Positions 1-30,232 of a stretch of 30,232 nt of DNA are shown here, in pieces. Location of the stretch: assembly GCF_042688385.1 (NCBI RefSeq), contig NZ_JBHUPY010000007.1, positions 386,110 through 416,341 of the forward strand. The letters are read 5' to 3'. Made by a program: the position numbers and the translations under genes. Under the pieces are notes generated by a model. The model was not told where the DNA came from and did not search any database. It worked only from the letters and a program-made list of their open reading frames with translations. Source of the stretch: Herpetosiphon sp. NSE202 (lineage in GTDB: Bacteria; Chloroflexota; Chloroflexia; Chloroflexales; Herpetosiphonaceae). The number at the start of each line of letters is the position of its first letter. Position 1 is the first letter of the stretch.

Positions 1-139
1 ATTTGTGGGATTGAACAGCTACGCCAAGCGTTTGCAAACCGCGATTCAAGCAGTATTGGCCAATGGGCCACACACGCCCGACCTTGGTGGCACAGCCACG
101 ACGGCTGAGGTGGTGCAAGCAGTGATTGACCAGTTTTGA
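1..139 (+). CDS. 3' end of an isocitrate/isopropylmalate/homoisocitrate dehydrogenase family gene (partial; frame 2, stop TGA 137-139)
   Basis: Translation of frame 2 is FVGLNSYAKRLQTAIQAVLANGPHTPDLGGTATTAEVVQAVIDQF*. The ...TPDLGG.ATT.E....AVI... C-terminus is typical of the beta-decarboxylating dehydrogenase family (LeuB/Icd/Hicdh). Its position directly upstream of a lysW-lysX cluster suggests homoisocitrate dehydrogenase. Confidence 0.5.
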   Translation, partial: FVGLNSYAKRLQTAIQAVLANGPHTPDLGGTATTAEVVQAVIDQF

Positions 140-458
140 TCCACGAAGAGCACGAAGAGGGTACGAAACCACGAAGAACGCGAAGAGCACGAAGAGGATG
201 AGGCTCTAGGCTTTTGGCTAGCGGAAGAATTAACTCCCCTCGCCCGCGTTCAGTGGGCGAGGGGCTGGGGGTGAGGGGAATTCTAGCTCCCTACCACTAC
301 CCTTGAAACCACGAAGAACGCGAAGAGCACGAAGATGATGAGGCTCTAGGCTTTTGGCTGTTGGCTAGCGGAAGAATTAACTCCCCTCGCCCGCGTTCAG
401 TGGGGGAGGGGCTGGGGGTGAGGGAATATCACCCCTAACTAATAAAGGATTACAAACA
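100..458. repeat. Composite intergenic repeat array. CACGAAGAR 9-mers, then a ~140-bp unit present twice in tandem (about 165-304 and 305-445). Each unit ends in a GC-rich hairpin element CCCCTCGCCCGCGTTCAGTGGGCGAGGGGCTGGGGGTGAGGG (236-278 and 383-427).
   Basis: Direct reading of the sequence. The second copy differs by a 7-bp internal duplication (gttggct) and a few substitutions; one substitution (C to G) breaks the hairpin stem. Confidence 0.8.
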
Positions 459-626
459 ATGAGCGCACAATGCCCAGAATGTGAAGGAACGATCGTGTTG
501 GCGGCAGATATTTTGGATGGCGAGATTGTGCCATGCCCCGATTGTGGCGCAGAACTCGAAGTCGTCAGCCTGAACCCAGTTGTTTTGGAATTAGCACCCG
601 AAGTCGAAGAAGACTGGGGCGAGTAA
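459..626 (+). CDS. lysW: Amino-group carrier protein LysW (55 aa). It is missing from the ORF track because it is under 60 aa.
   Basis: ATG at 459 translates to [55 protein letters not shown]. It has an N-terminal CxxC...CxxC zinc ribbon and an acidic C-terminal tail ending EDWGE, the hallmark of LysW/ArgW. It lies 7 nt upstream of lysX. Confidence 0.85.
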
Positions 627-633
627 GGGAGTT

Positions 634-1503
634 ATGGCAATGCGTGTGGGTATGTTATGTTCCCGAATTCGGGTTGAAGAAAAGCTGCTGATCAATGAAT
701 TTGAGCGGCGCAATGTCCAATTTGAACGAATTGACGATGATCAGACATGGTTTGATTTGAATGCTTTACAAGCTAATCGTCAAGTGCGCGCGCAATTTCC
801 TGATGTGATTATTGAGCGTTCGTTGCACCATGGTCGGGCCTTGTACACCCTCAAAACCTTGAACGATGCTGGCATTCCAACGGTCAACAATTATAACGTG
901 GCCTTGACCTGTGGCGATAAATTTTTGACGACCCAAGCCCTGTTGCGCAACGGCGTACCATCGCCGCGCTGTTTGCTGGCCTACACCCAAGAATCGGCGC
1001 TCGAAGCGATCGAAAGTTTGGGCTATCCGGTGGTGTTGAAGCCAGTTATTGGCTCGTGGGGTCGCTTGGTCTCGAAGATCAACGATCGCGAAGCAGCCGA
1101 AGCAGTGCTTGAACACCGCGACACCTTGGGCAATTATCAGCACGCAATTTTCTACATTCAAGAATATATCAACAAACCAGGTGGCCGCGATATTCGCGCT
1201 TTTGTGGTTGGTGATGAGTGCATCGCGGCGATTTATCGCACCAGCGGCCACTGGATCACCAATACTGCACGCGGCGGTGAGGCTTCCAATTGCCCAATTA
1301 CGCCAGCCTTGGCCGATATTTGCATCGGTGCGGCCAATGCGGTTGGTGGCGGCGTGGTTGCAATCGATGTTTTCGAAACAGCCGAAGGTCGCTATTTGGT
1401 CAACGAAGTTAATTACACCATGGAATTTCGCAACAGCATTAGCACAACTGGGGTGAACATTCCTGAACGCATTGTTGATTATGTGCTAGCTCAAGCGCAA
1501 TAG
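634..1503 (+). CDS. lysX: RimK-family ATP-grasp ligase LysX (alpha-aminoadipate--LysW ligase; alternatively the ArgX paralog)
   Basis: 289 aa. Shows the RimK/LysX pattern (IRVEEKLLI..., [22 protein letters not shown]-grasp core). Sits immediately after lysW and before lysY. Putative SD AAGGGA lies 6 nt upstream. Confidence 0.85.
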
Positions 1504-1533
1504 TTGGCGCGCTGTAGCCAAATTGAGGTTGTT

Positions 1534-2568
1534 ATGCTTTCAGTTTCGATCGTTGGTGGCTCTGGCTATGTCGGTGGTGAATTGCTGCGTTTATTGTTGG
1601 GGCATCCCCACGTCGAGGTGCGTCAGGTCACCAGCGAACGCTTAGCAGGCCAATATGTCTACAGCACCCACCCCAATTTGCGCGGGCGCAGCGAGTTGCG
1701 CTATAGCCCACAAAGCACGTTGGAGCCGTGTGATGTGTTAATTTTGGCCTTGCCGCATGGCTCTGCTGCCAAAAACATTGAGCATTATGCTGGCCTTGGC
1801 CAAGCAATCATCGATTGTTCAGCCGATTTCCGCTTGCGCGACCCAGAAGCCTATAGCCGTTGGTATGGAGAAAAACACCCAGCCCCGCACTGGCTTGAGC
1901 GCTTTGTCTATGGCTTACCGGAGCTGTATCGCGAGCAAATTCGCGCAACCCGCTATGTCAGCGGTGTGGGCTGTAATGCAACAGCGATTAACTTGGCCTT
2001 GTTGCCTTTAGTCAAGGCTGGATTAATTGATCAAACCAAGCCAGTGGTGGCTGAAGTCAAAGTTGGTTCGTCCGAGGCGGGCGCGGTTGCCAACGATGGC
2101 AGCCATCATGCCGAACGCTCAGGCGTGGTGCGCTCGTTTGCACCAGTCGGCCATCGCCACACCGCCGAAATTGTACAAGCGCATGGGCTTGAAAATGTGC
2201 ATATTTCGATCACGTCGGTGGAAATGGTGCGCGGTGCTTTAGCAACATGCCACGTTTTTACTCAAGGCTCAGTCAACGAACGCGATCTCTGGCGAGCCTA
2301 TCGGGCAGCCGCCGCCGAACAACCATTTTTGCGCATTGTTCATGATCGCACTGGCTTGCACCGCCATCCTGAGCCAAAAATCTTGGCTGGCAGCAATTAT
2401 GCCGATATTGGCTGGGCGCTCGATGAAACCACAGGCCGCGTAGTTGCGCTCTGCGCACTCGATAACTTGATGAAGGGTGCAGCCGGAGCCGCCATCCAAT
2501 GCTTGAATTTGATGCATGGCTTCGACGAAAGCGTAGGGCTTGAGTTTAGCGGCTTGCATCCGGTTTAA
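1534..2568 (+). CDS. lysY: [LysW]-aminoadipate 6-phosphate reductase LysY (ArgC-like)
   Basis: Rossmann N-terminus MLSVSIVGGSGYVGGELLRLL and catalytic Cys motif GCNATA, as in the ArgC/LysY family. The track ORF starts at 1504. ATG 1534 is preferred because GAGG lies 8 nt upstream and the Rossmann motif starts there. Confidence 0.8.
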   Translation: MLSVSIVGGSGYVGGELLRLLLGHPHVEVRQVTSERLAGQYVYSTHPNLRGRSELRYSPQSTLEPCDVLILALPHGSAAKNIEHYAGLGQAIIDCSADFRLRDPEAYSRWYGEKHPAPHWLERFVYGLPELYREQIRATRYVSGVGCNATAINLALLPLVKAGLIDQTKPVVAEVKVGSSEAGAVANDGSHHAERSGVVRSFAPVGHRHTAEIVQAHGLENVHISITSVEMVRGALATCHVFTQGSVNERDLWRAYRAAAAEQPFLRIVHDRTGLHRHPEPKILAGSNYADIGWALDETTGRVVALCALDNLMKGAAGAAIQCLNLMHGFDESVGLEFSGLHPV

Positions 2569-2862
2569 GAACATAGAACATAGAGCATAGAACATAGGGG
2601 TCGGGGGTCAGGGGCTGGGGATCGGTGGTCGGGGATCAGGGTTTCGAGGATACTAAGCTGGATTTTAACGCAGCGGCGCAGAGAGGGAGAATAATTATGA
2701 AGGATGAGAGATGAAGGGTGAAGGGATATGCTCTCCACATTGAGCTTGACGTGCTTCGTGCCCTTCGCGTGCTTCGTGGTTTCATTCTTGGGAATCTTTG
2801 CGTCCTTCGCGGTTCCTAGCCTTAGCGTGCTTCGTGCTCTTTGTGGATCAAAAAGGAACAAC
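2569..2862. repeat. Composite repeat insertion between lysY and lysZ. AACATAG x4 heptamers, then G-rich heptamers (GGGGTCGGGGGTCAGGGGCTGGGGATCGG...), then reverse-orientation CTTCGTG nonamer-type repeats.
   Basis: Direct reading. The same modules occur at 100-458, 12428-12781 and 29880-30232. The track lysZ ORF (2728..) has a spurious 45-aa N-terminal extension that translates these repeats. Confidence 0.8.
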
Positions 2863-3666
2863 ATGTTTGTGATAAAAATTGGCGGCGCGGCGGGCATTGA
2901 TTATAGCAATCTTTGCGCTGATATTGCCCAGCTTGCCGCCCAAGGCCAACCGATTGTGCTGTTTCATGGTGGTTCGGATGGAGCCAACACACTTGGCGAG
3001 CAACTTGGCCATCCGCCGCGCTTCATCACCTCGCCGTCGGGCCATACCAGCCGCCAAACTGATCGGCGCACGCTCGAAATTTTCATGATGGCGACAGCCT
3101 TGCTCAATCGCCAGCTGGTTGAGCACTTGCGGGGCTTGGGAGTCAACGCTTTCGGTTTATCGGGCCTCGATGGAGGCTTGCTGCAAGGCACCCGCAAAAC
3201 CAATGTTCGGGCGGTCGAAAACGGACGGGTGCGCGTGATTCGCGACGATTGGACAGGCAGCATCGACCAAGTTAATCGTGGATTATTGCAAATGTTGCTG
3301 AGCGCTGGCTATCTGCCAGTCATCGCACCATTGGCGGTCAGCGCTGCGGGCGAACCATTAAATATTGATGGAGATCGCGGCGCGGCCAGTGTGGCAGCTG
3401 CACTCGAAGCCGAAACCTTGTTGCTGCTAACCAATGTGAGTGGCTTATATCGTAATTTTCCCGACGAAAGCAGCTTAATCGCGCATTTGCCGCGCACAGA
3501 ATTAGCCCACGCCAGCGAAAAACTCGCCCAAGGCCGCATGAAGAAAAAATTGCTTGGAGCACAAACCGCGCTAGAGGCTGGCGTGCGCCGCGTGATTATC
3601 GGCGATGGCCGCAGCGAGCAACCAGTCAGCGCAGCGCTCGCAGGCAATGGAACAATCATCGAATAG
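2863..3666 (+). CDS. lysZ: [LysW]-aminoadipate kinase LysZ (ArgB-like amino-acid kinase)
   Basis: MFVIKIGGAAG... amino-acid-kinase N-terminus. SD AAAGGAA lies 6 nt upstream of ATG 2863. 267 aa. Confidence 0.8.
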   Translation: MFVIKIGGAAGIDYSNLCADIAQLAAQGQPIVLFHGGSDGANTLGEQLGHPPRFITSPSGHTSRQTDRRTLEIFMMATALLNRQLVEHLRGLGVNAFGLSGLDGGLLQGTRKTNVRAVENGRVRVIRDDWTGSIDQVNRGLLQMLLSAGYLPVIAPLAVSAAGEPLNIDGDRGAASVAAALEAETLLLLTNVSGLYRNFPDESSLIAHLPRTELAHASEKLAQGRMKKKLLGAQTALEAGVRRVIIGDGRSEQPVSAALAGNGTIIE

Positions 3667-3685: not shown

Positions 3686-4867
3686 ATGACTGAACAACAA
3701 CCTTTTGCCAGTTTGGAAGCTGCTCATAGCGCGGGCGTGTATGCCAAGCGCCCAATTACCTTGGTGCGCGGCAGCGGCGCAACCCTCTACGACGATCACG
3801 GTCTGGCCTATCTCGATTGTGGCTCAGGGATTGGGGTTGCCAACATTGGCCATTGCCATCCAACAGTGGTGCAGGCAATTGCCGAGCAAGTAGCAACCCT
3901 AACGGTTTGCCCAGAAGCCTTTCACAACGATCAACGCGCCTTGTTACAAGCCGAATTGGTGCAATTATTTCCTGCCGAATTTCAACGGGTATTTTTGTGC
4001 AATAGCGGCACCGAAGCCGTCGAAGCAGCCTTGAAATTTGCCCGCATGGCCACAGGCCGCACGGCAATCGTCGCAGCCATGCGAGGCTTTCATGGCCGTA
4101 CCTTTGGAGCCTTGAGCGCAACCTGGGAGAGCCATTATCGCGAGCCGTTTATGCCGCTCGTGCCCGATTTTAGTCATATTCCCTACAATAATATCGAGCG
4201 TTTGCAAAGCGCTATAACCGAACAAACCGCCGCCTTGATTATCGAAATTGTCCAAGGCGAAGGCGGAATTCGGCCTGCAACCGCCGAATTTTTGCAAGCA
4301 GCCCAAACAATTTGCCGCGAACGCGGAGCCTTGTTGATTCTCGATGAAGTGCAGACTGGCTTTGGCCGCACGGGGCGCATGTTTGCATTTGAACATGTTG
4401 GCTTGCAGCCTGATTTGGTCTGTTTGGCTAAGGCCTTGGGTGGCGGCATGCCAATGGGCGCGGTCGTGATCAACCAGCGAGTTGGCGAATTGGCGATTGG
4501 CACGCATGGCTCGACCTTTGGCGGCAATCCCTTGGCATGCGCGGCGGCGCGGGCTGCGCTCAGCGTGATTCGCACCGAACAATTGGTTGATCAAACTGCC
4601 GAAAAAGGTGCGTGGTTATTGGCTCAATTGCAAGCGATTCGTTCGCCCAGAATTCGCGAAGTGCGTGGCTTGGGCTTGATGATCGGCATTGAACTCAAGG
4701 AAAAAGTTGCGCCCTATCTGCAAAAATTAATGAACCAGCATCAGATTATTGCGCTGAATTCTGGCAGCAACGTGTTGCGCCTGCTCCCGCCGCTGGTCAT
4801 TTCGTGGCCAGAATTAGAACGCGTGGTGGCAACCCTGCGCAGCATGTTTGAGGAGCCAGCAGCATGA
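3686..4867 (+). CDS. lysJ: [LysW]-aminoadipate-semialdehyde/acetylornithine-type aminotransferase LysJ (class III PLP aminotransferase)
   Basis: Class-III aminotransferase motifs (GSGATLYDDHG, NSGTEAVEAALKFAR, DEVQTGFGRTG, the PLP-Lys region LAKALGGG). ATG 3686 has an AGGA SD. The track start 3605 would overlap lysZ by 60 nt. Confidence 0.8.
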   Translation: MTEQQPFASLEAAHSAGVYAKRPITLVRGSGATLYDDHGLAYLDCGSGIGVANIGHCHPTVVQAIAEQVATLTVCPEAFHNDQRALLQAELVQLFPAEFQRVFLCNSGTEAVEAALKFARMATGRTAIVAAMRGFHGRTFGALSATWESHYREPFMPLVPDFSHIPYNNIERLQSAITEQTAALIIEIVQGEGGIRPATAEFLQAAQTICRERGALLILDEVQTGFGRTGRMFAFEHVGLQPDLVCLAKALGGGMPMGAVVINQRVGELAIGTHGSTFGGNPLACAAARAALSVIRTEQLVDQTAEKGAWLLAQLQAIRSPRIREVRGLGLMIGIELKEKVAPYLQKLMNQHQIIALNSGSNVLRLLPPLVISWPELERVVATLRSMFEEPAA

Positions 4868-5919
4868 ACGATCAACAAGCTTTGCAATTAATTGAGGCCA
4901 TGGTGGCAACACCCAGCGTTTCTGGCGACGAGGCCGCGCTGGCCCAACTCTTGGTCGAGCAGATGCACCACGCTGGCTTTGATGCGCACGTTGATGCGGT
5001 TGGCAACGCAGTTGGGATGATTGGAGCTGCTGCTGAAACCGTCGTGCTGCTTGGGCATATGGATACTGTGCCAGGATATATTCCAGTTGAAGTGCGCGCT
5101 GGCGAGTTGTGGGGGCGCGGTTCAGTTGATGCCAAAGGCTCGTTAGCGACGTTTATTGCTGCTGCCGCCCGCGCTCATGCTGAGCAACGCTTGGCCTATC
5201 GGGTGATTGTGGTTGGCTGCGTCGAAGAAGAAATTGCATCATCCAGAGGTGCGCATTTTATAGCCCAAACCATGGCCGCGCCAACGTGGTGCATTGTCGG
5301 CGAGCCAAGCGGCGCAGACCGCCTAACCTTGGGCTACAAAGGCAATTTGCGGGCACAAATTCGCATCGACCAGGATGCAGCCCATTCGGCCCACGCCAGC
5401 CAGACCGCCGCCGAGCATGGCTGTGAATTGTGGAAAAGCATCGCCCAGCACGCCAATGAGTTTAACCAAGGCCGCGAGCGAGCCTTCGATCAGCTGCTAC
5501 CAAGCCTTGTGCGCATCGAATCTGGTGGCGATGGCCTGCGCGATTGGTGCGAGTTGCTGGTCAATGCCCGCTTGCCCTTGGATCTTGATCCGGCGGCCTA
5601 TACTGCGCTGCTGCAACAACTATTGCCCAATTATGCCCACTTGAACATTAGCGGCGCAACGCCTGCCTACAGTAGCGAGCGCACATCGAGCATAGCGCGG
5701 CGTTTTGGGCGAGTATTTCGCGCCAAAGGCCAGCAACCGCGCTATGTGCAAAAAACTGGCACCGCCGATATGAACGTGGTTGGGCCAGCCTGGGGTTGCC
5801 CTGTTGTTGCCTATGGCCCAGGCGATGCCGCGCTCGATCACACGCCACACGAGCGTTTGCCGTTGGCCGAGTATTTACAGGCGATTAACGTGTTGACCGC
5901 TGTCTTGAGCAACGAGTAA
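4864..5919 (+). CDS. lysK: [LysW]-lysine hydrolase LysK (ArgE/DapE-type M20 metallopeptidase)
   Basis: M20 motifs (HMDTV, GRGSVDAKG, EEE.SS.G). The start overlaps the lysJ stop in ATGA, which implies translational coupling. Confidence 0.75.
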   Translation: MNDQQALQLIEAMVATPSVSGDEAALAQLLVEQMHHAGFDAHVDAVGNAVGMIGAAAETVVLLGHMDTVPGYIPVEVRAGELWGRGSVDAKGSLATFIAAAARAHAEQRLAYRVIVVGCVEEEIASSRGAHFIAQTMAAPTWCIVGEPSGADRLTLGYKGNLRAQIRIDQDAAHSAHASQTAAEHGCELWKSIAQHANEFNQGRERAFDQLLPSLVRIESGGDGLRDWCELLVNARLPLDLDPAAYTALLQQLLPNYAHLNISGATPAYSSERTSSIARRFGRVFRAKGQQPRYVQKTGTADMNVVGPAWGCPVVAYGPGDAALDHTPHERLPLAEYLQAINVLTAVLSNE

Positions 5920-6846: not shown

Positions 6847-7105
6847 GATTCCCCTCACCCCAACCCCTCTCCCGTCCAACGGGCGAGGGGCTTTCATGCC
6901 GTGGTTCTACCTCAAGGCGTGGTAAAACGTGGGATAGGGGCTGCTTACGAGGGTCGGTTGTTAAGATCCCCTCACCCCAACCCCTCTCCCGTCCAACGGG
7001 CGAGGGGCTTTTGGTTGTGTGGGTTTGGCATGATTGGTGGTGAACATTGGTGCTCCCCCTCGCCCGCGTTTTCGTGGGAGAGGGGGCTGGGGGGTGAGGG
7101 AATCT
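6847..7105. repeat. MITE-like cluster of three GC-rich hairpin elements. Two reverse copies (6848-6890, 6967-7009) and one forward copy (7055-7100) that faces the second reverse copy.
   Basis: Reverse copies read CCCCTCACCCCAACCCCTCTCCCGTCCAACGGGCGAGGGG. The forward copy reads CCCCTCGCCCGCGTTTTCGTGGGAGAGGGGGCTGGGGGGTGAGGG. Each contains a 10-bp stem hairpin. The cluster lies between convergent mscL and the lipoprotein gene, so it is positioned to act as a bidirectional terminator. Confidence 0.8.
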
Positions 7106-10948: not shown

Positions 10949-12346
10949 TTAGCCAAGCACGCGGTTAAGGTTAGCTTCGAGTTTTTGGCGTAAATCACGG
11001 CGCACTTGCTCGCCAGTTGCAGGCGTGGTCAGTAAACCAGCCACAATCCCCAAAATAAATGAGCGCAGGCCGGTGCGTGCGCGGCGGCCTTTGCGGCCAA
11101 CCTCGGTGGTTACTTCACCAGTTTTATGGGCGATTGTTTGGGCTGCTTGCTGGGTCGTTTCGCCAACGATATGCGCAGTTTCTTTGGCGCGGCCACCAAC
11201 AACCGAGGCAGCATCTTTAGCGCGCTCGCCAACAACCGAGGCGGTTTCTTTGGCCCGCTCGCCAACTACAGTTGCAACATCCTTGGCCCGTTCGCCAACC
11301 ACTGAGGCCGTTTCTTTGGCGCGGCCACCAACAACCGAGGCTGCGCCTGCAACTGCTGGAATAACCGTTGCGCTTACATCTTGGGCCTTGGCGCTCACGG
11401 TTTGGGCAACCGAACGCAAGGCATCGGGCGCATGCTCACGAGCTTCTTTAGCGCGTTCGCTGGTTGTTGCCAAAAATTCTTGCACAATGCCACTCAAGCG
11501 TTGCACCAAATCGCTGGCTTGATCACGAGCATCAGCGCCTTTGCTGCTCGCCACATCAACCGCGCGATGGCGTAAATCGTCTGCTTGTTCAAGTACAGTT
11601 TCGCTGCTGCTGCTCAAACGATCGCGTACTTCATTCAAAATGGTTTTAGCCTTATCAGCCAAGGTTTCGCCTTGATCCATCGCCTGTTCGCGCACATCGG
11701 CCAAACGGCTACGGGCATCGGCGCTTTTGCTGCTTGCAGCTTTCACCGTCTGATGGCGCAAGTCGTCGGCTTGCTCAAGCACGGTTTCGCTGGTGCTGCT
11801 CAAACGATCGCGCACTTCATTCAAGATATTTTTGGCTTTATCGGCTAAGGTTTCACCTTGATCAACTGCTTGATCGCGTACATCGGCCAAACGGCTTTTG
11901 GTTTGGTCGCCCAAATCGTTGGCCCGATCGCGGCTGGCGGTAGCAACCGCAGCTAAGCCAGCAGTTGCAGCGCTCAACAACGAACTACCTTTATCGCGAC
12001 CTTGAGCGGCTTTTTTGCCAAGTTGGTCAACAGCATGTTCAACTTGATCGCGGCCAGTTTCCAAGCTCGCATTCAAGCGTTGATTGGCGTTCTTGCCAGC
12101 TTTGCGCAATTTCTTTTGCTCGCGTTTCAGTTCTTTGCGGGCTTGTTTGCTGAGGCTATGCAAATAGCTATTGGCATCGGCAGCCCGATGTTCAACTTGA
12201 TCGCGGAGATTTTCGGTGAGCAAGGCGACTTTTTCGCCCAAGCTGGTTGGATGATTGCGGCGGCTGCGTGCGCCCAATACCCCACCAATCACACCACCAG
12301 CAATCAGTGCGGCAGTCAATAATGGTTGTTCTTTTTGCTCATTCAT
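10949..12346 (-). CDS. YtxH-domain-anchored LEA/apolipoprotein-like repeat protein
   Basis: Start at MNEQKEQ with an AAAGGAG SD. The track start 12427 is a GTG inside the repeat flank. N-terminus LLTAALIAGGVIGGVLGARSRR and C-terminus FILGIVAGLLTTPATGEQVRRDLRQKLEA are both YtxH-like (TM plus G.ELR) motifs. The interior has five 11-aa repeats (ASVVGERAKET) and a duplicated block of about 62 aa (ETLADKAK.ILNEVRDRLSS.SETVLEQADDLRH...). It is highly charged with many Ala, Asp and Arg, and is predicted helical. Confidence 0.6.
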   Translation of the reverse strand: MNEQKEQPLLTAALIAGGVIGGVLGARSRRNHPTSLGEKVALLTENLRDQVEHRAADANSYLHSLSKQARKELKREQKKLRKAGKNANQRLNASLETGRDQVEHAVDQLGKKAAQGRDKGSSLLSAATAGLAAVATASRDRANDLGDQTKSRLADVRDQAVDQGETLADKAKNILNEVRDRLSSTSETVLEQADDLRHQTVKAASSKSADARSRLADVREQAMDQGETLADKAKTILNEVRDRLSSSSETVLEQADDLRHRAVDVASSKGADARDQASDLVQRLSGIVQEFLATTSERAKEAREHAPDALRSVAQTVSAKAQDVSATVIPAVAGAASVVGGRAKETASVVGERAKDVATVVGERAKETASVVGERAKDAASVVGGRAKETAHIVGETTQQAAQTIAHKTGEVTTEVGRKGRRARTGLRSFILGIVAGLLTTPATGEQVRRDLRQKLEANLNRVLG

Positions 12347-12427
12347 AATCAATAACTCCTTTGCTCTACGATTCGAGCACGTATCTGCCAAACCTATAGC
12401 AAACCCTATACCAAGCGTTTGATCCAC

Positions 12428-12781
12428 GAGGGGTCAGGGGCTAGGGATCAGTTACGGAAACCACAATGAGGGATCAGGGGTCAGAGGTTAGGGATCAGTT
12501 ATGGAAACCGCGAAGGACACGAAGATCGCGAAGTTATTTTTTGCCTCAGATTGATCCACGAAGCACACGAAGAGCACGAAGAACCGGAACCACGAAGGAC
12601 GCTAAGATCACGAAGTTATTTTTTTGCCCAGATTTCCCTGATTATATTTACAATAACCCATCGCCCAAAGCCAATAGTCAAGAGCCTTTCATCCCTCATC
12701 CTTCATAATTCGTCCTTAAAAGAAAGAGGATCGAGCTACTACTAGCCCAATCCCCTATGCTCTACTCTATGTTCTATGTTC
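12428..12781. repeat. Composite repeat array. G-rich heptamers with an AGGGATCAGTTAYGGAAACC duplication, then CACGAAGNR nonamers, then reverse AACATAG heptamers.
   Basis: Direct reading. The module order mirrors 2569-2862 in the opposite orientation. Track ORFs 12466..12708 and 12551..12745 lie entirely within the repeats and are likely spurious. Confidence 0.8.
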
Positions 12782-13747
12782 TTAGTTCGTTACGGTTGGA
12801 ACAGGGCTGCTTGGTGGACTGAGCACACTTGCAGCAACCCAGCCACGGCCTGTGCCATCGGGCAACTGAATTTGATACCAATCGCCTGATTGACCAAGCA
12901 CTTGCACGCTATCGCCAGCCTTGAGCTGGGCAATCGGGTCGTTATTGGTATTTGGCGCAGGCCGCACATTGGCGGTTGGAGCGGTTACGCTAGCGGTTGC
13001 TGGAGCCACGGTTGGCGTAGCAGCAGTATCCACGGTTGGCGTTGCCTCAGCCTCATCATCTTCTGGGTCTTCGCCCTCAGCGGTATCTTCGCTAACCGGA
13101 GTTGCAGTGGGCAAAATTGGCGTAACCGCCGTGCCCCACGCTGCATGATTTGATTGATTAAGTGCGCCACGCACGGTCGTAATTCGTTCATTGGCCCAAA
13201 ATAAGGCAATAAACGCTACTGCAACTAATAACGCAATCCGAATTGGGTCAGAAAGCCGCAGGATGGTGCTACTGCGTTGCATCTCACGCAAGGCGGCAGC
13301 AGCGCTGGCGGCAACTGGCTCGCCCCAACTGGTGCGGCTGCGATCATCGCGGGCAACCCGCCGCAAGGCCAGCAGGGCCCGACCATCGCCAACTTTGCCC
13401 AAAGCGCGCACCGCAGCCCAACGCACGTTGCTGTTGGGGTGATTGAGTGCTTGGCTCAAGGGGCGGCTGGCCCGACCATCGCCAATTTGGCCCAAGGCTT
13501 CGGCGGCTCGATAGGCCCGCAACCACGGATATTTTGGATCAAGCGCTTCGATCAGCAAGGGAACTGCTTGCGCCCCCAAGCGAATCAAATCGTCTTCTGC
13601 TCGTTCGTGGTTGGGATCGTTGGCATTATCTAAGGCAACGACCAACTGGCGCAATTGCGCATCGGCAACCTGTGGCGGAGCTGCTTCGGGCCGGGCCTGC
13701 GATGGCTGCGGCTGGCGCGGCTGTGATGGTGGTACTTGATCAGTCAT
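12782..13747 (-). CDS. HEAT-repeat (PBS-lyase-like) / TM / SH3b-domain protein
   Basis: N-terminus is Pro/Gln-rich. Tandem HEAT-like repeats follow (...VPLLIEALDPKYPWLRAYRAAEALGQIGDGRA...NSNVRWAAVRALGKVGDGRA...). There is one TM (IALLVAVAFIALFW). The C-terminus is SH3b-like (LKAGDSVQVLGQSGDWYQIQLPDGTGRGWVAASVL). The start is ATG 13747 or GTG 13798; neither has a clear SD. Confidence 0.55.
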   Translation of the reverse strand: MTDQVPPSQPRQPQPSQARPEAAPPQVADAQLRQLVVALDNANDPNHERAEDDLIRLGAQAVPLLIEALDPKYPWLRAYRAAEALGQIGDGRASRPLSQALNHPNSNVRWAAVRALGKVGDGRALLALRRVARDDRSRTSWGEPVAASAAAALREMQRSSTILRLSDPIRIALLVAVAFIALFWANERITTVRGALNQSNHAAWGTAVTPILPTATPVSEDTAEGEDPEDDEAEATPTVDTAATPTVAPATASVTAPTANVRPAPNTNNDPIAQLKAGDSVQVLGQSGDWYQIQLPDGTGRGWVAASVLSPPSSPVPTVTN

Positions 13748-19217: not shown

Positions 19218-19246
19218 CCCCCTCTCCTGCATTTAGTAGGAGAGGG
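19218..19246 (+). terminator. Degenerate copy of the GC-rich hairpin element, placed as a terminator after the Wzy_C/TPR gene
   Basis: CCCCTCTCCT-gcatttagt-AGGAGAGGGG. 10-bp stem, 20 nt after the stop codon. Confidence 0.5.
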
Positions 19247-29863: not shown

Positions 29864-29923
29864 GATTATTGGATATGAGGTTTTAAGAACATAGATGTAT
29901 TGGTACATGAGGTTAACCACGGC

Positions 29924-30064
29924 ATGATCCCCTCACCCCAACCCCTCTCCCGTGGCGCGGGCGAGGGGCTTTCATCCCGTGGTTCTTGCACAATACGTTG
30001 GTAAAAACCGGTGCTCCCCTCGCCCGCGTTCAGTGGGAGAGGGGCTGGGGGTGAGGGCATGATC
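29924..30064. repeat. MITE-like element. Two copies of the GC-rich hairpin module in inverted orientation (29928-29970 reverse, 30015-30057 forward), bounded by CATGATC at both ends.
   Basis: The left arm reads CATGATCCCCTCACCCCAACCCCTCTCCCGTGGCGCGGGCGAGGGGCTTTCATCCCGTGGTTC and the right arm is its imperfect reverse complement. The organisation matches 6967-7100. Confidence 0.75.
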
Positions 30065-30147
30065 CTGGTTGCCAATCCAACGCACCAGTACACATAGAGC
30101 ATAGAACATAATCCTAACAATCTGTGAAAATCTGTGGCGAAAAATCG

Positions 30148-30232
30148 TTCTTCGTGTTCTTCGTGTTCTTCGTGTTCTTCGTGTTCTTCGTGTTCTTCGT
30201 GTTCTTCGTGTTCTTCGTGTTCTTCGTGTTCT
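30148..30232. repeat. Perfect 9-bp tandem repeat (TTCTTCGTG, about 9.5 copies) running off the window edge
   Basis: Direct reading. It is the reverse complement of the CACGAAGAA units in the other repeat arrays. Confidence 0.9.

Follow-up and report, generated by a model that had tools for sequence, protein, structure and literature searches.

The lys cluster and its repeat-filled spacer

The stretch of DNA analysed here, hereafter called the window (30,232 nucleotides of Herpetosiphon sp. NSE202, contig NZ_JBHUPY010000007.1), carries a lys gene cluster of the order lysWXYZJK, assigned by NCBIfam family matches, in which lysY and lysZ are separated by a 294-nt spacer containing arrays of short tandem repeats (Table 1). 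The spacer extends from the TAA stop codon of lysY to the true ATG of lysZ and contains, in this order, AACATAG heptamers (A module), G-rich heptamers (G module), a conserved non-repeat box, GAAGGAT heptamers (E module), CTTCGYG nonamers (N module) and a terminal GTGGATCAA tag. A preliminary description of this DNA had reported a repeat block of AACATAG, G-rich and CTTCGTG units between the two genes, which is confirmed by the sequence, by Tandem Repeats Finder (TRF) and by the chance test given below; it missed the GAAGGAT module and the non-repeat box, and the G-rich run that it placed at 2589-2650 is present, though with better boundaries as listed in Table 1.

In the machine-called open reading frame (ORF) of lysZ, only the part from residue 46 onwards matches the LysZ family, and therefore the true start is the ATG at 2863, which is also used by LysZ orthologues in the species alignment and is preceded by a Shine-Dalgarno sequence directly after the repeat element. 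The 45-residue N-terminal extension of the called ORF, rightly suspected earlier of being false, is thus an artefact, the indels between species breaking its frame. At the lysY end of the spacer, the stop codon of this gene supplies the first bases of the element end TAAGAACATAG; the C-terminal residue of LysY lies at the same position in other Chloroflexota, and TAAG or TAG also precedes the AACATAG array at unrelated loci. The two ends of the lys copy, TAAGAACATAG and GTGGATCAA, are not inverted copies of each other. The LysZ protein encoded in the window shares 97% identity with its counterpart in H. giganteus DSM 589, 94% with the one in H. geysericola and 93% with the one in a metagenome-assembled genome (MAG) of Chloroflexia.

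Among the modules, the AACATAG heptamers carry TAG in all three frames, and the A module is invariant in the four species compared. Units of the G module include GGGGATC and GGGATCA. The box GATTTTAACGCAGCGGCGCAGAG recurs in copies at unrelated loci, among them L086, L180 and site 1 of L002 and L003. The nonamer unit can be written CACGAAGNN, and among the metagenome matches listed the commonest continuation after CTTCGTGG is ATCAA. Only the CTTCGYG arm is present in the lys copy, which is thus single-armed and has no significant fold.

The GAAGGAT array contains a five-codon mini-ORF, ATGAAGGATGAGAGATGA, at 2697-2714, and in the window and in L001-L003 alike this array always gives ATG AAG GAT GAR NGA TGA (MKD[E/K][R/G]*). 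Longer GAAGGAT arrays place AAGGA 6 nt ahead of the next ATG. The mini-ORF may be a mere by-product of the heptamer.

Table 1. Features of the lys cluster and of related repeats in the window (window positions)
Feature	Position	Strand	Basis or remark
Second site, upstream gene to lysW	136-458	-	reverse-oriented nonamer arrays and two ~140-nt tandem units
lysW	459-626	+	NCBIfam
lysX	634-1503	+	NCBIfam
lysY	start 1504/1534, end 2568	+	NCBIfam
lysY stop TAA	2566-2568	+	also first bases of TAAGAACATAG
A module: G + AACATAG AACATAG AGCATAG AACATAG	2569-2597	+	TRF 2568-2597, period 7, 4.3 copies
G module: ~7 G-rich heptamers (GGGGTCG, GGGGTCA, GGGGCTG, GGGATCG ...)	2597-2650	+	TRF; repeat array proper 2597-2641
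Conserved non-repeat box GATTTTAACGCAGCGGCGCAGAG	2661-2683	+	nearly invariant in four species
E module: GAAGGAT GAGAGAT GAAGGGT GAAGGGA	2699-2726	+	E modules at many other loci
False lysZ N-terminal extension, 45 aa	2728-2862	+	NCBIfam match from residue 46; inter-species indels not multiples of three
N module: NNCTTCGYG nonamers, broken by GGTTTCA and degenerate units	2752-2845	+	same array type at at least 120 metagenome loci
Terminal tag GTGGATCAA (reverse complement TTGATCCAC)	2843-2851	+	sequence, species alignment
lysZ Shine-Dalgarno AAGGA	2853-2857	+	directly after repeat element; AAGGA-N5-ATG
lysZ	called ORF 2728-3666; true ATG 2863-2865	+	NCBIfam, orthologue starts
lysJ	start probably ~3683 (ORF called from 3605), end 4867	+	NCBIfam
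lysK	4864-5919	+	NCBIfam
Third site, full composite between two minus-strand genes	12347-12781	-	module order as in lys spacer
Fourth site, AACATAG array split by nested ~200-nt element, then perfect (GTTCTTCGT)x9.6	29864-30232	+	TRF
CCCCTCACCCCAACCCCTCTCCC-type hairpin family	237-278, 384-424, 6850-6927, 6967-7044, 7050-7100, 29928-30057; shorter relatives 19220-19242, 25216-25238		

Copies of the composite in the window

Motifs of the spacer occur in the window 200- to 500-fold more often than expected from shuffled sequence. The double nonamer CTTCGYGNNCTTCGYG, with at most one mismatch, has 25 matches against 0.05 expected, and the double heptamer ARCATAGARCATAG six against 0.03. All matches but one lie inside four intergenic blocks, the lys spacer and the three further sites of Table 1, which bears out the earlier statement that the same modular repeat occupies three other intergenic positions.

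The third site presents the composite in full. Read along the minus strand, the TAA stop codon of the preceding gene (12782-12784) is followed by an AACATAG array, a terminator-like hairpin (12756-12725), a GAAGGAT array, nonamers and two GTGGATCAA tags. The hairpin, a 14-bp stem followed by TTCTTTT, stands directly behind the AACATAG array, and this copy separates independently terminated genes, whereas the operon-internal lys copy is devoid of such a hairpin. In L232, which carries an 89%-identical orthologue of the HEAT/SH3 gene of this locus, the AACATAG array and the hairpin are kept with a different downstream neighbour; orthologues of about 60% identity in high-G+C relatives have plain terminators instead. 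For the ORF called at 10949-12427 (minus), the annotated start is a GTG that lies within the GTGGATCAA tag, whereas translation should begin with the ATG at 12346 (MNEQKE...) after AGGAG, and hence this gene has received a false N-terminal extension of the same kind as lysZ. The gene also contains in-frame coding tandem repeats of 33/66 nt (11150-11344) and 186 nt (11525-11896), which give reiterated AKETASVVGERAKD-like segments and are unrelated to the intergenic repeats.

At the second site, ahead of lysW, the TGA stop codon of the upstream gene (137-139) lies within TTGATCCAC (136-144). A unit of about 140 nt, consisting of nonamers, GGCTTTTGGCT and a G-rich hairpin, is tandemly duplicated there (165-304 and 305-444), with up to 98% identity over 55 nt. 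Its 30-nt nonamer arrays, 165-194 and 305-334, are 93-94% complementary to 2754-2784, and lysWXY is thus bracketed by inverted repeats 2.4 kb apart. These could pair in one transcript or mediate inversion; equally, the arrangement may be a coincidence, arrays of this type being so common. At the fourth site, the perfect GTTCTTCGT array (30147-30232) runs off the end of the window and probably broke the assembly; it also shows expansion of nonamer arrays to be ongoing.

A second dispersed repeat family in the window consists of CCCCTCACCCCAACCCCTCTCCC..GGGCGAGGGGC / CCCCTCGCCCGCGTTCAGTGGGCGAGGGGCTGGGGGTGAGGG hairpins (Table 1). Seven of the eight canonical G-quadruplex motifs of the window belong to this family and the eighth to the lys spacer, all eight being intergenic.

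The composite family in other Herpetosiphon contigs

Composites of the same module order were found at at least 15 unrelated loci, among the matches listed, in Herpetosiphon-like contigs of about 50% G+C, several of them from one assembly with contigs of 0.2-0.6 Mb. They are 130-480 nt long, contain a TTTAACGCAGAGGCGCAGAG box and can include extra modules such as GGCTATRGG and AATCTGTG...GGCTAAAA. Since the order of modules is constant whatever the neighbouring genes, the composite is a repeated unit and not a set of independent microsatellites. Between co-directional genes its copies are found in either the sense or the antisense orientation, and others lie between divergent or convergent genes, which argues against a device that must be read in sense RNA.

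Neither the spacer nor 12400-12800 matched a plasmid collection by blastn, and a comparison with Rfam 15 gave nothing, either at gathering score for the complete window or at E<=5 for 1-3000. In viral contigs, the nonamer pattern minus its CAA tag gave 31 stretches, mostly chance matches within coding sequence. None of four exact motif strings of 10-13 nt was found as a repeat element in the literature searched, no paper was found that ties Herpetosiphon to intergenic tandem repeats, and these repeats are not mentioned in the H. aurantiacus genome paper. The accessible text of a paper on a 'mobile promoter' that mentions Herpetosiphon contains no sequence, and no link to the element was established from it.

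A wider family of nonamer hairpins

The nonamer end of the composite belongs to a much wider and apparently undescribed family of tagged inverted-nonamer hairpins, present in Chloroflexota and in many metagenomes. Scanning metagenome contigs with the pattern CTTCGYGNNCTTCGTGGATCAA gave at least 120 stretches, and nonamer arrays were accordingly located at at least 120 loci with 45-68% G+C from many habitats. The counts of hairpins and gene contexts that follow refer to 128 nonamer elements among the matches listed. Roughly 60% of them make up hairpins built as ATCCACGAAG(NNCACGAAG)n, loop, (CTTCGTGNN)nCTTCGTGGAT(CAA), with loops of 4-235 nt and a median length of about 80 nt; variant CACRAAG forms are present in lys clusters of Anaerolineales, and a relative at L004 5855-5995 has perfect terminal inverted repeats of 20 nt.

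These hairpins occur in all gene contexts, and the way in which their ends meet genes is striking. The stop codon of a neighbouring gene is the TGA within TTGATCCAC in 13 of the 128 elements and lies 0-3 nt beyond the tag in a further eight, while no neighbouring ORF runs deeper into any of the elements. In 23, the tag is followed by a gene start at a distance of no more than 60 nt, often with the succession GTGGATCAA, A-rich stretch, Shine-Dalgarno sequence and ATG. False GTG-initiated extensions produced by ORF callers recur at offset -18 in many metagenome ORFs.

As for what might move or recognise the elements, all-versus-all clustering of the 409 ORFs within 2.5 kb of the 128 elements revealed no recurrent family, the largest cluster covering eight loci, and within this set no linked transposase, be it a REP-associated tyrosine transposase (RAYT) or another. 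On inspection, no direct repeat that could be a target-site duplication flanks the complete hairpins L116, L131, L139 and L143. Variable NN positions facing each other in the hairpin arms can pair in 76 of 112 cases against 74.6 expected, which is the level given by base composition, and this gives no support for selection on RNA structure. The resemblance of TTGATCCAC to a DnaA box, seven of nine positions by eye, was considered and rejected.

Age of the element at the lysY-lysZ junction

Homologous spacers lie at the same junction in H. giganteus (L001, 471 nt), H. geysericola (L002, 498 nt) and a Herpetosiphon MAG (L003, 264 nt), the stop codon being included in these lengths. The repeat modules are present in these relatives, which supports the earlier observation of the repeat as such and contradicts the accompanying view of a recent insertion into the operon. 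The element predates these species, and one can speak of an insertion only as an event older than the genus.

Four anchors are invariant in the alignment of the four species, namely TAAGAACATAGA; GATTTTAACGCAG..GGCGC; ATGAAGGAT.AG.GATGA; and CTT.GTGGATCAAA.AAGGA. Between them, repeat units have been gained and lost. Over aligned columns, the identity of the window spacer is 0.81 to L001, 0.85 to L002 and 0.63 to L003, the fourfold-degenerate sites of lysY and lysZ being identical at 0.80-0.88, 0.70-0.73 and 0.55-0.66, respectively; as a whole the spacer is therefore close to neutral, changing at roughly the silent-site rate. Nested elements of about 200 nt are found within the lys spacer in L001 (5595-5772) and L002 (5530-5755), and they represent independent insertions because they have opposite orientations and lie at different points. 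The nested element of L001 has 12-nt inverted ends, TTTCAAGGGTAG/CTACCCTTGAAA, and CTACCCTTGAAA also borders the 140-nt tandem unit at 292-304 of the window.

Ahead of lysW, the interval that follows the upstream dehydrogenase-like gene is likewise occupied by nonamer arrays, both in the window and in L001-L003 as well as in two MAGs of sister genera (L004 and L005), and in all six the TGA stop codon of the upstream gene lies within (T)TGATCCACGAAG.

The lysY-lysZ junction across Chloroflexota

The preliminary description took it as given that the genes of known lysW clusters are tightly packed. A survey of 72 Chloroflexota lys clusters gave a median lysY-lysZ gap of about 90 nt (interquartile range 70-163), with a gap of at most 20 nt in only one, and the lysW-lysX and lysX-lysY gaps are likewise loose; therefore this premise fails for Chloroflexota. 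Nowhere in the phylum is the lysY-lysZ junction translationally coupled. It can be called permissive, and what usually occupies it are repeat hairpins peculiar to the lineage.

Among the 52 spacers of 40-200 nt that were subjected to a fold test, 33 contain strong hairpins (z<-3), most of which begin within a few bases of the stop codon. These hairpins are lineage-specific and comprise inverted heptamer arrays, ATGTCATTGCGAGGG palindromes and other types, the heptamers being TAGCTGG in L004 and L005, AGAATGC in L009, L014 and L032, and AGAGAAT in L062. In L004 (3484-3560) and L005 (5865-5985), the whole gap is a near-perfect inverted heptamer hairpin (TAGCTGG and AGCTAGT types) that begins at the TAG stop codon, with folding free energies of -54 and -70 kcal/mol and z of -6.9 and -6.0. 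Either the junction needs a stem-loop, or it is colonised by whatever palindromic repeats each lineage possesses. A ATGTCATTGCGAGGG...CCCTCGCAATGACAT palindrome stands at the junction in Anaerolineales L038, L070, L016, L045 and L048, and is a candidate for another REP-like family.

Interpretation of the spacer

Taken together, these observations make it probable, with some reserve, that the lysY-lysZ spacer is a copy, resident for a long time, of a non-coding mosaic repeat that is dispersed in the genus Herpetosiphon, comparable to repetitive extragenic palindromic (REP) sequences and bacterial interspersed mosaic elements (BIMEs), non-autonomous and co-transcribed as a passive spacer. The modules of the family unit stand in the order (GAAGGAT)n, (AACATAG)n, G-rich heptamers, a TTTAACGCAGNGGCGCAGAG box, optional further modules, (NNCTTCGYG)n and the GTGGATCAA tag. 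Copies, none of which encodes a protein, would spread as a unit by a mechanism acting in trans, and would then change by gain and loss of repeat units through slippage and by nested insertion of other small elements. The lys element overlaps the lysY stop codon and takes up all of the interval between it and the ribosome-binding site of lysZ; it would be carried, mainly as a passive spacer, in a single lysWXYZJK mRNA from which lysZ is presumably translated by means of its own AAGGA-N5-ATG.

Several points weigh against this interpretation. Mobility is suggested by the distribution of copies only, because for the composite neither a transposase nor a target-site duplication nor an empty-versus-filled site came to light. 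The short anchors are invariant in four species, the most distant pair of which is identical at 55-66% of silent sites, and this could mean function or else homogenisation against other copies. Conservation of the nonamer across Herpetosiphonaceae, with a variant in Anaerolineales, implies a recognising factor, which the word passive leaves unexplained. Finally, strong hairpins in 33 of 52 spacers make a functional intercistronic structure at this junction plausible, which the Herpetosiphon element could replace.

The latter point leads to the less probable alternative that the spacer acts post-transcriptionally in the lys mRNA. Here the G-quadruplex, the repeat arrays (through a bound protein, or by pairing with the inverted nonamers upstream of lysW) or both would form a barrier to processing, decay or translation that results in a different output of lysWXY and lysZJK. 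The spacer does contain a canonical G-quadruplex motif, GGGGTCGGGGGTCAGGGGCTGGGG (2597-2620, G4Hunter score 2.6), on the sense strand, 29 nt after the TAA; the earlier expectation of quadruplex capability is to this extent borne out by prediction, and G-rich heptamers of Xanthomonas and Nostoc favour the same position (PMC4692102). The invariant anchors, the complementarity of the bracketing arrays and the junction hairpins of other Chloroflexota, including the sister-genus MAGs, can be read in the same sense. However, the motif, kept in L001 and L002, is lost in L003 (G4Hunter 1.24, without four G-tracts), and the designation of the spacer as structured does not agree with fold z values of -1.2 for the sense and +0.8 for the antisense strand, nor with -1.5 for the L003 spacer. 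A change at about the silent-site rate, the toleration of insertions of about 200 nt, the presence of the composite elsewhere in antisense, divergent and convergent contexts and hairpin arms without covariation beyond base composition likewise speak against an RNA function. Since a need for a stem-loop and colonisation by repeats cannot be separated at this junction, the post-transcriptional alternative nevertheless keeps real weight.

More speculatively, the mosaics and the TTGATCCACGAAG-tagged nonamer hairpins might be cis elements of an undescribed system spanning Chloroflexota, in which the 9-nt CACGAAG unit would be read by a conserved protein, either of the host or transposase-like, and which would set or keep the arrays exactly at stop codons and ribosome-binding sites and so shape operon expression, the Herpetosiphon composite being its most elaborate form. 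A candidate for the recogniser is a single-strand HUH enzyme acting beside TTGAT, a sequence which presumably resembles the ISDra2 target.

It is unlikely that the element brings its own promoter or terminator and thereby splits the operon into separate lysWXY and lysZJK units, as had been proposed in the preliminary description. Copies can carry such signals, as the hairpin and T-run of the third site demonstrate, and a consensus scan could miss a promoter in Chloroflexota, where promoters are poorly defined. Such a scan, subject to that limit, found nothing sigma-70-like on the sense strand of 2450-2950; the four species have no candidate -10 or -35 hexamers in common; and the only terminator-like site in the spacer is a 5-bp stem (2765-2779), of a kind no more frequent than in shuffled sequence. 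That the modules are independent microsatellites or chance low complexity, or that the region is coding (as the lysZ extension or as a 110-aa minus-strand ORF, 2565-2897), is hardly credible, for although ORF callers do yield ORFs across the region and perfect arrays such as that of the fourth site show active slippage, the motifs far exceed shuffle expectation in a module order fixed over many loci, a period of 7 cannot hold a reading frame, the minus-strand ORF has no family match, the LysZ match omits the extension, and inter-species indels break the frame.

Relation to known repeat families

Of the kinds known, REP/BIME mosaics and the heptamer repeats found in cyanobacteria and in Xanthomonas (PMC4692102, PMC4679880) come closest, the present case being in a new phylum. 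With REPs and REPINs, including the GTAG/CGTC REPs (PMC3733652), the elements share a high copy number, a non-coding and intergenic nature, the lack of a gene inside and the lack of a visible target-site duplication. The nonamer relatives fold into hairpins that bear a short asymmetric tag on one side, as REPs do, and element ends touch stop codons or overlap with them and in many cases furnish them, which recalls the GTAG ends of tagged REPs, reported to supply stop codons often (Di Nocera et al. 2013, PMC3733652). However, the tag here is TTGAT(CCAC), i.e. GTGGATCAA/TTGATCCAC, in place of GTAG or CGTC, the arms are arrays of 9-nt units in place of a single palindrome of 20-40 nt, the lys copy is one-armed, and no RAYT-type gene was linked to the elements among the neighbouring ORFs clustered. 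The BIMEs of enterobacteria are likewise mosaics of short motif types in a preferred order, intergenic also within operons and variable in the copy number of their parts; there is no sequence relationship, and the parts here are tandem heptamer and nonamer arrays in place of REP variants plus linker motifs.

Tandem heptamers in non-coding DNA are also known as the short tandemly repeated repetitive (STRR) sequences of filamentous cyanobacteria, which resemble Herpetosiphon in being filamentous, and as the GGGNATC/GGGGAYT repeats of Xanthomonas and Nostoc (Rehm et al. 2015, PMC4692102), whose GGGGATC/GGGATCA-type units with at least four G-tracts correspond to those of the G module. The present case differs in its Chloroflexota host, in that the G-rich array is one module of an ordered composite and in that the G-quadruplex motif is not found in all orthologues. 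The TAACTGA heptamers of Beggiatoaceae, cyanobacteria and Bacteroidetes (MacGregor 2015, PMC4679880), for which a role in translation was proposed, are similarly abundant intergenic direct repeats, often situated just upstream of starts and patchy across phyla, but have another unit sequence and form single arrays without mosaic order. Miniature inverted-repeat transposable elements offer a parallel as small, non-autonomous and dispersed elements with nested insertions and, as in the hairpin relatives, terminal inverted repeats, whereas the lys copy has unlike ends and neither a target-site duplication nor a cognate transposase was found.

Significance

In practical terms, GTG-rich nonamer arrays beside gene starts lead to false N-terminal extensions in annotation, as for lysZ, the gene at 10949-12346 and many metagenome ORFs, and perfect arrays break assemblies, the window itself ending in one. 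Herpetosiphon joins the filamentous cyanobacteria and Beggiatoaceae as a lineage in which heptamer arrays dominate the intergenic DNA, and in its case they are organised in a fixed order. The lys junction offers a simple test bed, since it is occupied by the mosaic in Herpetosiphon, by a perfect heptamer hairpin in sister genera and by other hairpins in Anaerolineales. The lys copy is ordinary for this genome, and it is the wider tagged nonamer hairpin that is the part worth following: its CACGAAG nonamers are kept in sequence across distant Chloroflexota and many environments, it supplies stop codons, and a protein that recognises the nonamer, if it exists, would define a new REP-like system.

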